A stretch of DNA of 41,265 nucleotides from Peribolospora baueri (taxonomy: Eukaryota). Below are positions 25,625 to 34,341 of the stretch, one piece after another. The position numbers and the translations under genes are program-made. The stretch lies in contig JAMDHS010000129.1 of NCBI GenBank assembly GCA_029717555.1, positions 1-41,265 on the forward strand, in the 5' to 3' direction. The notes under the pieces are model-generated. The model saw only the letters and a program-made list of their open reading frames with translations. It was not told where the DNA came from and searched no databases. The first letter of the stretch is position 1. Every line of letters begins with the position of its first letter.

Positions 25625-27679
25625 TTAGTCTCGGTACTGAGCACAGACACAGTAGATGGGGAAGAGTATAGGAAAAGAGGTCGGGAGACGAAGAAGCGAG
25701 CAAGGGGGCCAACGTCAGTATGGAAGATGCTCGCCCAGAATTAGAAAAGGCGCCATCGACCGACACCCAGTCGCCGCACCAGCCCGAGAACTTACCTTGT
25801 CCATGAATTGCTTGTGGAACTTGGAGATGCGCTCCACGAAAGCGTCTGTCTCCTTCGCGAGTCTGTTGGCATGCCGTCGAGGAACGAGGTGAGCGAGCAC
25901 CCCGGAAGCGACCATTTGAAACGTGGAAGACCACATCGTGGTGAGCTCACATCGTCGTCCTGAAATGGTACGTCCCCTCCACCTGCCCAAAGCCGGAGCC
26001 GGGAACTACGCAGATACCGGTCGCGTCGAGGAGCTCGAGACAGTAAAAGTCGTCCGGCTTCTTGCCGGCCTTTTGGGCCGCCTCGATGGCTCTGCGAGGG
26101 AGACGGATGCGCGGGAACAGGTACATTGCTCCCTGGGCCTCGTTGCAATCCACGCCCTCCATCTGAAGGAAAGCGTCTCGCATCTTGGTGACGCGCTCCT
26201 TCATGCGTAGATGTATGCGCTCCTCCTCCTGCTTGTAGAGCGCGTACGAAGGCTCACCCTCCCTAGGCGGACGTACGAGTAGGTCCACGCCGATTTGACC
26301 CTGCACAGAAGGGCAGAGCTGAATGGAGGCCAACTTGTACACCTGCTCCTCCACCTCGGCGTCGATGTTGACCAGCTCGAAGTAACCTCCCCTACGACCG
26401 CACTCGCCCGTCACACCCTTTGAGATGCTGTGGAAGCTCACGAGCTCCACGCCGTTAGCCACGTCGGTCCTTCCTCCATGCTGTGGTAGAGCAAAGTCGC
26501 GGAGGACCTTTTTAAAGGAGACGAACGGACGCTGCTCGGGCTGGTAGATGTTACGCTGGTAGACCTCGTCAGCGAGGAGGACGAGACGCTCCTCGTGAGC
26601 GAGCAAAACTACCTCGCGCATGTTCTCCTCGCTGAGCGTCGCGCCGGTCGGATTGCCCGGGTTGATGACTACCATCGAGCTGACATCCTTGCCTTCGGAA
26701 CGGGCTTGACGTATGGACTGGCGGATGGAGGGGACGTCGAGCGCCCAGTCACCGGAGGACTCGTTGAGATAGTAGGGCAACGCGTGGGCATCATGTAGAG
26801 CAAGGGTGGCGGTGTAGAGAGGGTACTGCGGAATGGGAATGAGGACGGCGGACGAGGGGGATGCAAGCATGATCTGGAAGAGCAGCGCCACACCGCCCGA
26901 GGCGCCCGACGTGAGGTAGATGCGCTCCGGGTCCGCGGGGTGACCGTCGCGCTCTGCGGGTGGTTCCAGCAGCCGAAAGAGCCCCTCCCCCCTAGTCAGT
27001 CACCAGGAGTTGGCAGACGAGACAAAGGCGCTCGGTGAGTGTGTGTGTGCTCACCCTCGATAAACTCGGCGACGTGCTTGCGAATGCTAGCGGCTCCCTT
27101 GGAGTGAGAGTAAGCGCCGACGGAATAGAGGTCGTCGAGCAGATCTTTGGCGCGGCGCTGAACGTCCGAAGGAAAGAGCGAGGAGAGGAGGGGCTCGGAG
27201 ATGGACTTGACGAGAGAGGGCAGCTCCGTCAACGCGGCGACCTGTGGGGCGAGGACGAGGTGAGCAGAGTGATGAGGGCGTCACGACGCTCGCTCACAGT
27301 AGGGAAGTGGGCTGACCTGGCGCCAGAATGTCAGCGGCTCCTGCTCGAGCCCTTCCTGCTGTGGGTTGCCGATGTTGGCGGTGACGACGCTGTCGAAGGG
27401 CAGCCCTCGCTTGTCACCGCTCCTGAGCCGGGTGGCATAGTCGTTGGCGCGGATGGAGAGCTCGCCGCGGACGGCGTACTGAACGTTGATGACATGCTGA
27501 TTGATCGTGCTCTTGGCCAGGACGGGCTTGCGAGCGGACGAGGAGGAAGAACGGAGAGGGGGCGAGGAAGAGGGCATGAGGGACGAGGGAGACAGGTAGG
27601 CAGTTGTGAAAAGGAGGCTTGGGGTGGTGACCCTGGGACGGAGGAGGGGAAGCGGGACGACGGGGCGGACGTAGGGCAT
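25625..27679 (-). CDS. ALT1: Alanine aminotransferase (PLP-dependent, class I)
   Basis: YAVRGELSIRA, ANIGNPQQ, SVGAYSHSKG, LIPIPQYPLYTA, VVINPGNPTG, LLADEVYQRN, PLP-lysine motif SFHSISKGVTGECGRRGGY and GICVVPGSGFGQ..GTYHFRTT. Terminal exons 25863-25797 and 25636-25625 (YRD*). Confidence 0.95.
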
Positions 27680-28198: not shown

Positions 28199-28978
28199 AT
28201 GGGCGTGCAGCCTTCCAAGATCTCAGAAGACGAAAAGGCGTATTACGCCGACACTCCGGTTCGGGTGCGCTGGCCGTCAACTGAAAGCACAGGTGGTCGA
28301 GATGGTGACATGACATAACATGACGTGACTGACAATGACCTTGCCCTCCTGTCTTTCCGCTTCTCAGTTCTCGCCTGGCTTGATCAACCACCTAGACGAT
28401 CAGCTCGCCTCGTCCTCTCCCTCCTCCCCAGACGCCGCCCGACAATCCACGCTGGACGCGCACGTCCGCTCGCGTATCCGTTCCGAGCTCGACCGCCTTC
28501 GAGCGCAGGAGGCCGAGGTGCGCGCCGAGATCGAGAGGGCGCTCGAGAGGGAGAATTTGGATCGCGAGCAAGGTGGAAGCGGCGTCGCATCGGAAGAAAA
28601 GCAAGTGGGGGACGAGGCGCGTCGGACGAACAGCGTGATCCTCGCTCGTGACCTTGACGAGATCCGGCGCAAGATCGAGAGGCATCATCAGAAGAGAGAC
28701 CTCGCCTCCTACCCTGACATCAAGGCCGCCCAAGAGGGGCTCGTCGCTTGCTTCAGGGACAGGAAGGGACGCACGCTCGATTGCTGGAGGCAAGTCGACG
28801 ATTTCAAGGCGGCCATCGCTAAGGCAGAAAAGGTGAGCGGGATGAAGCTTGCCGTCGCCTTCTGTGCGCATATATCGCTCATTTGCACGGATGGCTCCTC
28901 TTTCATCTCCCCTACCCTCTTCTCCTTCTCCGCTCCTCTTTATTCCCACTCCAGGACTTTGTAGCTTCGTTTGCTTAG
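28199..28978 (+). CDS. MIC19: MICOS subunit Mic19 (DUF1690)
   Basis: Three exons: MGVQPSKISEDEKAYYADTPVR / FSPGLINHL...RQSTLDAHVRSRIRSELDRL...LVACFRDRKGRTLDCWRQVDDFKAAIAKAEK / DFVASFA*. N-terminal MG and a C-x10-C pair typical of fungal Mic19. Confidence 0.85.
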
Positions 28979-30335
28979 ATCTATGTACAGGATATAGGCC
29001 GGTGGTCCCCGTGTCGTGAACAAGCACATTATTCCGTCTGGTGTGATATGTGGTCTGGAGCAAGGAACGATCGCGAATGGAAGTTGGTTCTATAGAGGCG
29101 AGATCCAAGTGGCCACTTCTACGCTGTATCGTTCTTACTAACGGACCTCACTGGCGTCGTTAAGGTTCCTCACGCCCGTGGCCGAAAGGACGCTTTGTCC
29201 ACTGCACTCGGTCCGTCCCGTTCACTTTCTCAAATCAGTCTTTCCCCCACGGCAGACACGCCCGAAGGCGAAGGAGTACAGCAAGTCTACTTGGAGCCTT
29301 TCTTGCCGGAACCGTTCCTAGTCCACTGACCGATCCCGGATATTCCGAAACTGGTTAGTCAAGAGCCCCTCGAGCGCCCCTTCGCTGCCGACGTCTGTGC
29401 TTTGCATGTTCAAACAGGCCGTAGGTCGCTTTGCCTCGTGGACAGTCCGAAGTCCCACTTTGGACCTCTTTGGAACAAATCTGGCCGCAGCCCTTGGCTG
29501 TCAGAAAGGCAGGCAGTCTAGCATGCGGGTCCTGTCCAGTGAGTGCTCTGGGTCGCAATGAGAAGCGGACGGTATCAGAATGCCACGCCAAGATGTCGGA
29601 GTAGATATTTCGCACCTGTATATCCGCCAATGTCCGATATCTCCGATTTCCCGACCTTCCTACATGCACAGAGCGTCGTTTTTCGTTCAGACGGACATGG
29701 TATCGAAAGAGGGCGGATAACACCAACTAGTGCAGTTTACGTTACCATCTTCGTCTTGTCTGTTGCCTTGGGCCCCTACTACCTTTGTCCTGCCTACCAC
29801 CTGTCTTCTTCCTGCTGTGCTGGACGGCGTACGGCCGCGGCTGTGCGCGTGTTGGGGTGTATTTTTAGGCCCATCACGTGGGCGTAGAAGAGACTTTTTT
29901 TTGTCCTCGGGCTGACACTGCCTTTTCAGGCACGTTCCGTGGCAGATCCAGGATCATCCCACATTGTCTCCGACTTATCGTCCATCGGTAGCCGTCCGAG
30001 TGAGGCGGATTTGCAAATTGGGAAATTTTTTCTCTTTCCTCTTCAGCAGCAGGTACAAGCGACGTCGTGCAGCGCTCGGGTCTGCAAATACTTAAAGCTC
30101 TCGCGATAGACAAGAGCGCGCCGCTCTTTTCTCACTCTCGTTACTATTGTCCTCCTTACCACCCCTTTTTTGGCGTCTCCCTTGAGTCTTCTTACCTCTC
30201 TCTATCAGCCCACAAGTCTTCGGCAGAACAGACATCGAGCTTCGAGGTCCTAGCGGTCAACCACTCTTAGCCTCCTTGCACCTAAACTCACCGTCGACGA
30301 CGCCCGTCACGTTCACCCCTCTCGATACCACCAAG

Positions 30336-30416
30336 TTGGCTACCTCCAAGCGTCTCGTCCTTGCGCGGTCTTCCAGCGGACGAATGATAGTCGCTGGAAC
30401 CAGGAAGCCCCCATAA
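30336..30416 (+). promoter_or_regulatory. Candidate regulatory uORF ending Arg-Lys-Pro-Pro-stop in the Mg2+-ATPase leader
   Basis: accaccaagTTGgct (A at -3, G at +4) at 30336 opens (M)ATSKRLVLARSSSGRMIVAGTRKPP*. An in-frame weak-context ATG at 30384 gives MIVAGTRKPP*. TAA at 30414-30416. Confidence 0.4.
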
Positions 30417-30447
30417 GGTTCCCCCAAGAAAGTGAAAGACCTTCCCG

Positions 30448-30595
30448 GTAAGTCAGTCACTACCCGCTGGCTTCCTCATCGAATCCTCCTCGCTTACGCT
30501 CCCGTGGACGATCTTACCCTTTCGCGGTTCGCTTAATCCCCCGCTCCATGGTTAAAGGCACGTTCATGGCAACACTAATCCCCTCAGCACCTTAG
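30448..30595 (+). other. Putative 5'-leader intron of the Mg2+-ATPase gene
   Basis: Perfect donor G|GTAAGT at 30448, branch-like ACTAAT at 30574-30579, and candidate acceptors at 30587, 30595, 30610 and 30614. Confidence 0.5.
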
Positions 30596-30807
30596 ACTCT
30601 CCCGCTCTAGACAGTTCCTTTTCACCTCGCGCCCGCCTAGATCCACGTTCGTAGTAAAGTCGGATCTAGTTCAAGACGTTCACCTTCGTCCTCGGCCGCC
30701 TTCGTTGTCCCGACTGGCTTCGTGTCAAGCCGTCCACCTCCGGTAGCGATCGGCGTCCTGCTCACGCCTTGGACCTAGCCGCGCTTGACGGCAAGCTTGA
30801 CGCCGCG

Positions 30808-33800
30808 ATGATCATCCAAGGCGCCTCGTCTAACTTGGAGGACAAGCCTGATCCTCGCTCGCCCGAGGCTGCGTCTCCTTTTGCCCTTCAGGACGACGCG
30901 GAGCCTAAGAAAACCTTCAAGTTTTCTGCCTTCCGCCGTCAGCGCGCTCCGGCCGTCTCCGACGCAACGGTCGTCTCCGCTCTGTGCAAGTTTGCCGCGG
31001 TTTCTGCCCAGGAGATGTTTGCTCTGCAGCCGCCGTCTCGTCCCGTCGGTTTGTTCGAATCCGAGGTACAAGACCTTCGCGCCAAACATGGACTTAACGT
31101 GCTCACCGTCGGCCGCCAATCTTCGACCATGCACCTGTTGTTCTTCGCCGCTGTCACGCCGTTCAATGGAATCCTCATCGTTTTGGCCGCCACCGCAATC
31201 GGCACTGGCGATCATGCCACCTTCGCGGTCATGCTCATCATGGTTGTTGCAAGCACGATCTTGCGCTTCGTTCAGGAAAAGAAGAGCACCATCGCCGCCG
31301 CACGCTTGGTCGCAGACAACGTGTCCAGCACATGCTACGTGCTCAGGAAGCAGGGCAGTCCGACCGCTGCTCGCATCGGCGAGTTCGAAACGGAGGAAGG
31401 GGCCATCGTGATCCCTCGAGACCAACTCGTACCTGGCGACGTGCTTTGTCTGGCTGCCGGCGATGTGGTACCTGCCGATGGCGTCGTCATCTCGTCCAAC
31501 TCCATGCTCGTTAACCAAGCAACGCTGGTATGTCACCATCTCATCGTCCGCGTATATTCGCTCGACTCTGCCACCTAACGCTCAGCACGTTCGTTTTGGC
31601 AGACCGGTGAAATCTTCCCAGTGGAAAAGGTCCCCAAGCTTTCATCCCTTCCGCCGAACGAGACGCCTGATCAAAATGGTGACGAATCGCCAGAAGGAGC
31701 TCAGCTGGACGTCATCTCTGCGACTAGTATCTGTCTGTCAGGTACAAGCGTTGTCAGTGGAAGCGGTCGAATGCTCGTTCTGGGAACAGGTGACAGTGAG
31801 TGACTTCCCCTCAACTCTGTGATCTCTGCCTAGTGTCGGCTTCGCTGACTTGCACACCCGTTTCAATTCCACATAGAAACATATATGGCTTCCATTGCGG
31901 GTGCTCTGGCGGGCAAGCGTGTCCCGAACTCTTTCGAGCTCGGGATTCGCCGAGTGTCATACGTGAGCCCATGCTCCCATCAGCACAGGCTTGACCAACT
32001 GTTCCATTCTGATATGACGGATATGATATGACCCTTTTCGTACGGCGTTCGTCCAGTTGCTCATCATCTTCTGCGCTGTGATGACGCCCATCGTCTTCAT
32101 CATCCAAGGCCTCGTCAGCAAAGATTGGAAGCAAGCACTCTTGTTCAGTATCTCTGTTGCCGTGGGACTCACGCCCGAAATGCTGCCTATGGTCGTCAAT
32201 TCGAACCTGGCAATCGGAGCGCTCAAGATGGCGCGTGATCGGGTCATTGTCAAAAGACTCGATGCGGTCCAAAACTTGGGCGGGTGCACCGTCTTCTGTA
32301 AGTACTGTAGATGGCGGACAGAGACTTGGGGTCGGGACCTCACATATCCTTCCATCGTCTCCAGGTTCTGACAAGACAGGTTCCCTCACAAAGGACGAAG
32401 TCGAGTTGGTCACCTCTGTGGACGGTCAGGGCAAGCCGTCATCGCTCGCCTTGCGCCTCGCTTTCATCAATGCGCACTTTCAGACCGGATCTCGGTCTCT
32501 TCTTGATGCGGGTATCGTCGGCGCCCACGACGAAGTGATTGCTAGCGCGGGCATCACAGATGGCCGGGATGCACTGACGCAAGACGTGTCTACACTAATG
32601 GCCCGCGGGGAGGTGCCGTTCGACAGCGCTAGAAGGCTTCTCACCGTCGGAGTCGTACCCACCGACGAGGCAGAAGGCAAGAGCGTGTTCCTCATCACTA
32701 AGGGCGCCGTCGAGGAGTTGGTGTTCCGATGCACCACCGTCATTACCGAAGACGAGGCTGCCACCGCAAGCGTGATTTCTATGCCGCGTTCCAAGCTCCT
32801 CACGACAGAGACTCGGGCTGATCTTCACCGGACGGCCGGCTCTCTCAACCGGGAAGGTCTCCGTCTCGTAGGCGTGGCCGTCAAGGCTTCCGTCTTCTAT
32901 CCTTCAATGGGTCTGACGTCCGAAGATGAATCAGATCTTTGCTTCGTTGGCTTCCTTGGCTTCCTCGATCCGCCGAAACCGGACGCCAAAGACGCCATTG
33001 ACCACTTCCGTCGCTGGAATGTTGATGTCAAGATTTTGACCGGCGACTCTCCTGCCGTGGCTGTCAAGGTGGCTCGCGACATTGGTCTTCTGGACGCTTC
33101 GTTGCCCTTCCCGGACGTCGAGCGACCAATCGATGTCGAGACGTTACTCGAGGCAGACTCGACCAAGCCGTCCGTGGTCACAGGCAACGATTTGTGTCTC
33201 ATCAACGATGGCGACGAAGAGGTAGCGCGCGAACGCATGCGCACCGTCGTCCAGCACGCCGTCATCTTTGCTAAATTGAGTCCGCACCAGAAGCTCGAGG
33301 TGGTTGACGCTTTGCGCTCTCTCGGCCACACTGTCGCCTTTCTCGGCGATGGCGTCAACGACTCGTTGGCGTTGCGCCGAGCTGATGTAGGCATTGCCGT
33401 CGATGCCGGCACTGACATTGCCAAGGACGCAGCGGACATCATCCTGCTCGAGAAGAGCTTGGCCGCTATTGGAAAGGGCATGGTGTTCGGCAGGGTCACC
33501 ATGGTCAACACGCTCAAGTACATCAAGATGGCCGCGTCGAGCAACGTGAGTCCATCCAGGATTGCACTATGGCACGTAATGCTGCTGATTCCCGGCCGTC
33601 TTTCCCGTACCCAGTTCGGCAACGTGTTCTCGGTTTTGGTCGCCAGCGCGTGGCTTCCGTTCACCCCAATGGCCCCGCTGCAGCTCTTGGTACAGAACCT
33701 TTTGTACGACTTTTCTCAAGCCAGCATTCCGTGGGACAATGTAGACAAAGAGCTGCTCGAGATGCCCAGATCATGGGGGGCCGGCTCGATAGCCAAGTTT

Positions 33801-34341
33801 ATGATCGTATTCGGCCCCACGAGCTCGGTCTTCGACATTTGCACCTTCTGTCTAAACTGGTGAGCATTTGATTATGAATGATCTGTGAGCGGCACTGTAC
33901 TCACTTGGTCTTTTCAGGTTCTTCTTCGGCATCCGCACGGGCGACTCGCCCTTGGTTCCGCGCGCCCAAACGCATTGGTTCCTCGAAGGACTCCTGACGC
34001 AGCTCTTGGTCGTCTATTCGCTGCGCACGCCCCGGATCCCTTTTCTCCAAAGCCGGCCTTCCATCTCAGTCCTCGCAACTACGTTGGGCCTAGGCGCCGT
34101 AGGGGTTGCGATCCCGTGAGCTCGGTTCTTTCTCCCATCCTCCATCTACGAGACTTGCTAACAAGGTGGTCTTCCTCTGTGTGATTGCAGTTTCATCCCC
34201 CCCATCGCGAGTGCCTTCTCGATGATGCGGCCCGCAGGCATCTTCTTCGCTTTCCTCGTCCCCATCTTGTCGGCCTATCTGGTCCTCGTCCACATCGTCA
34301 AGCAGATCTATCTGCGCATCTGGAAGGGAGAGTGGATTTAG
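30808..34341 (+). CDS. mgtA: Mg2+-transporting P-type ATPase, type P3B (MgtA/MgtB-like), 8 coding exons
   Basis: P3B-diagnostic strings LRFVQE, VAVGLTPEMLPMVVNSNLAIGA, VIVKRLDAVQNLG, CSDKTGSLT, FLDPPKPDA, KILTGD, FLGDGVND, YIKMAASSN/FGNVFSVLVASAWLPF.PM.PLQLLVQNLLYDFSQ..IPWDNVD, FGPTSSVFDI, QTHWFLEGLLTQ..V...LRT.RIPFLQSR and C-terminal VKQIYLRIWKGEWI*. Intron donors at 31528, 31796, 31963, 32299, 33546, 33860 and 34116, all joining in frame. Confidence 0.92.

Follow-up and report, generated by a model that had tools for sequence, protein, structure and literature searches.

A ten-codon uORF ending in Pro-Pro-stop in the putative leader of a basidiomycete P3B ATPase gene

The 41-kb window considered here (41,265 nucleotides of contig JAMDHS010000129.1, Peribolospora baueri) is eukaryotic DNA with short introns and a GC content of ~57%, and it contains a gene for a P3B (MgtA-type) P-type ATPase. 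An earlier note on this stretch drew attention to an upstream open reading frame (uORF) ending in Pro-Pro-stop ahead of this gene, and proposed that it has a UUG start and acts as a counterpart of the enterobacterial leader peptide MgtL. The region is read here as the ordinary long C/T-rich leader of a basidiomycete P3B ATPase gene with one small AUG uORF, a reading to which we give roughly an even chance. The ten-codon uORF is a candidate terminal-diproline uORF, a known kind, while the 76-codon frame and UUG start into which it had been placed are not real as one feature.

In the reading as an ordinary leader, the effect of the uORF on translation would depend on a transcription start site (TSS) upstream of 30384. 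The weak context of the AUG would then let most scanning ribosomes pass the uORF, and the few that start at 30384 would terminate, slowly if the analogy holds, at Pro-Pro-stop. After termination, scanning could resume across ~250 nt of spliced leader and allow reinitiation at the main AUG (30808). The net outcome would be a modest, mostly constitutive brake on ATPase translation and not a Mg2+ sensor.

The ten-codon uORF and its leader

The uORF begins with an AUG, its last two sense codons are Pro-Pro and a stop follows directly, as the definition of a terminal-diproline uORF has it (coordinates of all features are collected in Table 1). The context of its ATG, ggacgaATGa, has C at -3 and A at +4 and is weak, and the poor-context AUG described in the earlier note is thus confirmed by the letters. 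An AUG uORF with a Pro-Pro-stop end occurs in 2.1% of shuffled leaders, and 3 of the 479 short ATG open reading frames (ORFs) of the window end in this way (~0.6% per uORF). Such a uORF is uncommon, yet this carries little weight alone, since the window was picked for this feature.

An intron has been predicted between the uORF and the ATPase, in what would be the 5' untranslated region (5'UTR). The strict signature, GTAAGT...CT[AG]A[CT]...YAG, is found in 2.3% of 3000 shuffled leaders and the loose signature in 32%, and the branch motif lies 13 nt before the acceptor end, compared with 18–48 nt in the seven introns of the coding sequence (CDS). Judged by its signature the intron is likely real, and if it is, the mRNA must start upstream of 30448. 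The signature also suggests that the ten-codon uORF is transcribed, which we infer from these letters. Between 30000 and the main start there are three ATGs, one at 30384 and two, at 30548 and 30566, both inside the predicted intron. The uORF read from the latter two, which are the nearest to the main start, ends in ...SAP-stop. The spliced distance from the ten-codon uORF to the main AUG would be 251 nt if the predicted intron is real. Unspliced, the leader from ATG 30384 onward is at least 424 nt, which is long for a fungal gene.

Upstream of the uORF, the gap from 29697 to 30384 is the largest of the 1149 ATG gaps, against a mean ATG spacing of ~72 nt. In shuffles of 29150–30807, the probability of so large a gap as the largest one is 0.08, and that of zero ATGs in this segment alone is 0.014, a value calculated post hoc. 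The ATG-free stretch is a weak hint of avoidance of upstream AUGs (uAUGs) or a mere effect of C/T-rich composition. The TATA-like letters near 30089 and the C/T-rich tract are in the sequence as they had been described. Tracts of this kind are typical of fungal promoter regions, and the one at 30120–30210 may be promoter-proximal. A long leader, put at ~600 nt in the earlier note, is plausible because of the intron signature, the ATG-free stretch and the ortholog transcripts, whose leaders measure at least 214 nt and at least 380 nt. The fold energy of 30320–30447 is no better than that of shuffles (z = -0.28), and a search of Rfam over 29000–31000 has given no credible family; its sole match is a chance-level miRNA (E 0.16) at 29694–29761, outside the uORF.

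The Pro-Pro-stop end is shared by a longer stop-free frame, whose extent and GTRKPP-stop end are as the earlier note described them. In 2000 dinucleotide shuffles of the leader (30100–30807), the longest open frame has 117 codons on average and reaches at least 76 codons in 95.8%. Of the 2143 stop-free runs counted across the window, 283 have 76 codons or more, and a neighboring frame of the same strand, 30004–30270, is longer (88 codons). The codons had been called gene-like for ending in C, but C accounts for 0.42 of the third, 0.38 of the second and 0.37 of all positions, with similar values in the other two frames; the C-ending codons are attributed to a strand that is itself C-rich. The peptide of the frame matches none of the Pfam families. 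Against 1.84 billion representative proteins it has only four matches at E ≤ 1e-3, all low-complexity, in proteins of 272–2972 aa with multiple low-complexity stretches. No ATG is present in the frame before 30384.

The frame has been rejected as a protein-coding ORF, given its chance-level length, the lack of third-position bias and the lack of specific relatives. It has also been rejected as an upstream exon of the ATPase, as its TAA precedes the predicted donor. All three frames meet stops between the predicted acceptor (30587) and 30808. The 76-codon frame is a by-product of composition and not a coding unit. The letters around the TTG at 30336 do form the strong context claimed for it, with A at -3 and G at +4. 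Among the 32 ATG or near-cognate codons in 30100–30447, this TTG is one of five near-cognates with R at -3 and G at +4, and its proposed role as the start has found neither statistical nor comparative backing; a near-cognate start here is possible but unsupported.

Table 1. Features of the window around the leader of the P3B ATPase gene
Feature	Position	Strand	Basis and remarks
AUG uORF, 10 codons, MIVAGTRKPP + TAA	30384..30416	+	sequence
CCC CCA TAA, terminal diproline and stop, putative stall site	30408..30416	+	sequence
Predicted 5'UTR intron, 140 nt, GTAAGT donor, CTAAT branch-like motif, CAG acceptor	30448..30587	+	consensus signature
P3B (MgtA-type) P-type ATPase CDS, 8 exons, 1004 aa	30808..34341	+	exon model, uninterrupted
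ATG-free stretch, 686 nt	29698..30383	+	longest on either strand of the window
TACTTAAA, putative TATA-like element	30089..30096	+	sequence
C/T-rich tract	~30120..30210	+	sequence; GC skew -0.22 for 30001-31000
Stop-free frame, 76 sense codons + TAA, ending ...GTRKPP-stop	30186..30416	+	sequence; after TGA 30183-30185, with TAA 30414-30416
TTG, context accaagTTGg, A at -3, G at +4	30336..30338	+	sequence; in frame with the Pro-Pro-stop, 26 codons
DUF1690/MIC19-like gene, first long exon	28335..28964	+	Pfam PF07956, E 4.3e-30

The ATPase gene, its orthologs and the source lineage

The ATPase has been modelled in eight exons (30808–31527, 31603–31795, 31877–31962, 32057–32297, 32365–33545, 33615–33859, 33918–34115 and 34191–34341), separated by seven introns of 58–94 nt with GT[AG]NG[TC] donors and YAG acceptors. 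The TGE, DKTGSLT and GDGVND motifs are all in the model. TIGR01524, the Mg-translocating type IIIB ATPase, ranks first in NCBIfam for both exons scored singly, exon 1 (2e-28) and exon 5 (7.1e-81); the family cutoff of 610.75 bits applies to whole proteins. The best PDB matches are MgtA chains (1e-60, compared with 3e-34 for the next family). The N-terminus aligns with those of 12 fungal homologs, with a variable head of similar length, and an in-frame stop lies upstream of the ATG, at 30667–30669; therefore, 30808 is a sound start codon. Judged by family rank, structure matches and P-type motifs, the downstream gene is a real P3B (MgtA-type) ATPase, and the earlier identification of a fungal MgtA-type ATPase stands.

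Eukaryotic P3B ATPases among the homologs come from Agaricomycetes, Lipomyces, Naganishia, Rhizophagus, Mucoromycota, chytrids, dictyostelids and Plasmodiophora. This clashes with a 2023 review which places P3B ATPases in no eukaryotes except land plants, and which also puts Mg2+ transport by the P3B family in doubt (PMC10654040). Three metagenome proteins of 1245–1274 aa (P0113, P0137 and P0138) carry an MgtA-type ATPase together with the Pfam domains HAMP, HisKA and HATPase_c, and would be a pump joined to a histidine kinase.

Ortholog leaders have been collected by a metagenome scan with a Boletales-type homolog (P0061), which gave 27 loci, six of them fungal and including the gene start. 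These six represent three Boletales lineages: L001/L003, L002/L016 and L022/L024. L001 and L002 match the whole ATPase in a single, intron-free high-scoring segment pair and are therefore taken as spliced transcripts, while L003, L016, L022 and L024 are genomic. The leaders of the two transcripts, at least 214 nt in L001 and at least 380 nt in L002, both contain uORFs. The L002 ATPase is a very distant ortholog (48% identity) from a Suillus-like lineage. Its transcript carries a 25-codon uORF at L002:304–381, MVSRIQLTLHSLLAASRTSSRKKPP followed by a stop, which ends in RKKPP-stop. This uORF starts in strong context (atatacATGg) and shares letters of its TGA with the main ATG (gTGATGc). In L016, a nearly identical genomic locus, the uORF (2758–2955) is interrupted by two 5'UTR introns. 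The unspliced L016 form still has a four-codon uORF, MKPP-stop.

The expectation that uORFs ending in Pro-Pro-stop or Pro-Ser-stop precede the orthologs has held for this one of the three Boletales lineages; in the other two, none of the 27 distinct AUG uORFs has a Pro-Pro-stop end. In shuffles, a Pro-Pro-stop AUG uORF turns up at least once in the two transcript leaders with a probability of 0.030, and one ending in [KR]PP-stop, calculated post hoc, with a probability of 0.0014. The probability of one or more Pro-Pro-stop uORFs is 0.066 when each lineage is represented by a single genomic upstream region and 0.15 when all six loci are counted (at most 800 nt each, 47 distinct uORFs). The uORF peptides of the window and L002 are no more similar than shuffled peptides (P = 0.15, or 0.53 without KPP), and comparison of the window leader with the ortholog leaders by blastn-short has returned only 8–10-mers with E ≥ 2.5. 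Since the peptides and leaders are unalike and two other lineages lack the Pro-Pro-stop end, common descent of the two uORFs is unlikely, and on these comparisons the shared KPP-stop is chance or convergence.

The leaders of the other two lineages (L001:1–214, L003:215–442, L022:2680–2925 and L024:727–974) contain two highly conserved blocks, while the rest has diverged. The first block consists of a uATG and ~45 nt, with the peptide MGVFVRL..RLC.F. The second, of ~35 nt, reads ...CCTCC[A/T]CAGGT[A/C]AC[A/G]CACCCTTGAACG and looks like a nucleotide-level element, because the reading frames through it vary between lineages.

The matches of the window's proteins, which are themselves missing from the protein collection, identify the source as a basidiomycete. 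In a protein search with ATPase exon 5, the most conserved exon, the nearest proteins are from Agaricomycetes (Suillus, Pisolithus, Paxillus, Piloderma and Gautieria), at only 42–50% identity. A word-indexed protein search with exon 1 found 34 proteins, of which every named one is a bacterial MgtA-type ATPase (30–41% identity), and a metagenome scan with the same exon gave 158 pattern matches with no relative among them. On the minus strand, an exon (25947–26999) of alanine transaminase, a conserved neighboring gene, has its best match in Thecaphora frezii (65% identity), and its top matches are Thecaphora, Tilletia and other Ustilaginomycotina intermixed with Pucciniomycotina. Given best identities of 42–50% for the ATPase and 65% for the alanine transaminase, the source appears to be a basidiomycete without a close relative in the collections searched, and its lineage looks isolated within the basidiomycetes. 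The DUF1690/MIC19-like gene is the same-strand upstream neighbor of the ATPase and the left bound of the ~1.7 kb of intergenic DNA before it.

Alternative readings of the leader

Transcription might instead start downstream of 30416, for example within 30600–30780, and the uORF, the TTG and the intron-like signature would then have no translational role. Such a start is rather unlikely, although several of the observations above favor it: at 424 nt or more before splicing, the leader would be a long one by fungal standards, the loose intron signature arises in 32% of shuffles, the branch motif is only 13 nt from the acceptor where the CDS introns have 18–48 nt, and C/T-rich tracts are usual in fungal promoter regions. 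It is opposed by the rarity of the strict signature (just 2.3% of shuffles), by the position of both uATGs, 30548 and 30566, within the predicted intron with an ATG-free stretch upstream, and by the long, intron-containing leaders of ortholog transcripts. Other observations weigh against an ordinary leader from the opposite side, in that they would give the uORF a larger role. Predicted splicing leaves the Pro-Pro-stop uORF as the only AUG uORF in the leader, with the window's longest run free of ATGs directly before it, and it could have been kept on purpose. From its AUG down to the last Pro codon the distance is 27 nt, close to a single ribosome footprint, which would suit stall-enhanced initiation; behind a ribosome halted at the stop, the following scanning complex could come to rest close to the weak AUG. 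The recurrence of the same end in the 25-codon RKKPP-stop uORF of the L002 transcript hints at selection for a diproline end.

These points would be explained by a selected terminal-diproline stall uORF similar to UL4 uORF2, in the ten-codon or a longer near-cognate form, which would have arisen more than once and need not sense a ligand. A stalled 80S ribosome would block or dissociate the following scanning ribosomes, and would repress or buffer ATPase translation. We consider this unlikely. The uAUG, in weak context and distant from the main AUG, makes for weak repression, the Pro-Pro-stop end is not conserved and is absent from the 27 distinct AUG uORFs of L001/L003 and L022/L024, and the peptides share nothing significant past KPP. 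On the other hand, Pro-Pro-stop AUG uORFs precede two very distant P3B genes (the second by chance at 0.03–0.15), such ends are found in 3 of 479 short ATG ORFs of the window, and the L002 layout is strongly repressive, its uAUG having strong context and its stop running into the main AUG, and is kept across two 5'UTR introns. Terminal-diproline uORFs are described as repressing translation in UL4 and several human mRNAs, but the human ones repress even after proline mutation (PMC9648851). The MgtL analogue of the earlier note adds cation sensing to the stall. A UUG and/or AUG start would lead to an eIF5A-dependent Pro-Pro-stop slowed by high Mg2+ or polyamines, ribosomes would queue, the queued scanning ribosomes would initiate more on weak start codons, and the pump would be repressed when the cation is plentiful. 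All points counted for a stall apply here too, and P3B is the one pump family known to have a bacterial proline-codon leader peptide. Precedents are provided by the metabolite-sensitive termination stalls of the HOL1 (MLLLPS-stop), AZIN1 and AdoMetDC uORFs (PMC10855120) and by the Mg2+-dependent conserved 5'UTR mechanism of PRL-1/2 (PMC10083557). The proposal is nevertheless very unlikely. The UUG start is unsupported in context, shuffle and composition counts, the frame and peptide are not conserved, a eukaryote cannot couple translation to transcription attenuation, the leader gives no structure signal (z = -0.28), R-K-P-P is outside the RAPP-like motifs listed in PMC10987492, and Mg2+ transport itself has been questioned for the P3B family in the review cited above. 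The evidence for uORF control of a fungal P3B gene is thin overall, and a functional diproline uORF is best treated as a hypothesis built on one three-residue coincidence.

Comparison with known systems

The uORF2 of UL4 (gp48) in human cytomegalovirus has ~22 codons and is longer than the ten-codon uORF of the window. Its terminal Pro-Pro stalls the 80S ribosome at termination and the main ORF is repressed (PMC9648851). The window likewise has a short, weak-context AUG uORF with Pro-Pro directly before the stop. The stall in UL4 also requires upstream residues, and the two uORFs have no sequence similarity. For human Pro-Pro-stop uORFs, the same paper reports repression that persists after mutation of the prolines to alanine, and therefore Pro-Pro-stop alone is a poor predictor of a stall.

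In the HOL1 uORF of S. cerevisiae (MLLLPS-stop) and the AZIN1 and AdoMetDC uORFs, termination at a Pro-containing end is eIF5A-dependent and inhibited by polyamines, and PMC10855120, which cites Vindu et al. 2021 and Ivanov et al. for this, agrees with the earlier note on these precedents. Like the window uORF, they are short uORFs with a Pro-containing end in a eukaryotic mRNA for a transporter or enzyme. However, theirs are conserved and polyamine-responsive, whereas the window uORF ends in Pro-Pro-stop and not in PS-stop or PPW, and is matched in one of three distant lineages. In mammals, intracellular Mg2+ controls the translation of the PRL-1/2 phosphatases through a conserved 5'UTR element (PMC10083557). 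This system differs from the window in being vertebrate, of another gene family and conserved, and its mechanism and sequence are apparently unrelated.

The likeness of RxPP to RAPP-type arrest motifs proposed in the earlier note has not survived comparison. RAPP-like peptides (ApdA, ApdP and the SecM family) act on bacterial ribosomes by arresting elongation, and the majority of proteins that bear such a motif did not stall (PMC10987492). The window uORF resembles them in being small and upstream and in having a C-terminal basic residue-X-Pro-Pro; the motifs listed there (RAPP, RGPP, HAPP, QAPP, RSPP, TGPP and others) have A, G or S at position 2, where the window has K.

A literature search has found no paper that ties a uORF to a fungal magnesium-transporting ATPase, nor one on a eukaryotic mgtL-like proline uORF, in line with the earlier statement that uORF control of a fungal P3B ATPase has not been described. 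P3B pumps are barely studied in fungi, and the window uORF, if it does function, would give fungal P3B ATPases their first described case of translational control.

MgtL, the leader peptide of enterobacterial mgtA, contains proline codons, and as the ribosome moves along it, the leader RNA adopts alternative structures on which transcription termination depends. Control of this type has been rejected for the window, where the gene is nuclear and intron-containing and the leader gives neither a fold signal (z = -0.28) nor a credible Rfam family. That Pro-Pro-stop uORFs have arisen independently on fungal P3B genes, in the window and in the Suillus-like lineage, and act as eIF5A-dependent termination switches adjusting pump synthesis to Mg2+ or polyamine status, as a purely translational counterpart of MgtL, is a long shot. 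What the window has in common with MgtL is a small ORF that includes proline codons and lies ahead of a P3B ATPase gene, and if such a switch were true, bacteria and fungi would have converged on one regulatory logic, a proline-codon leader for this pump family.

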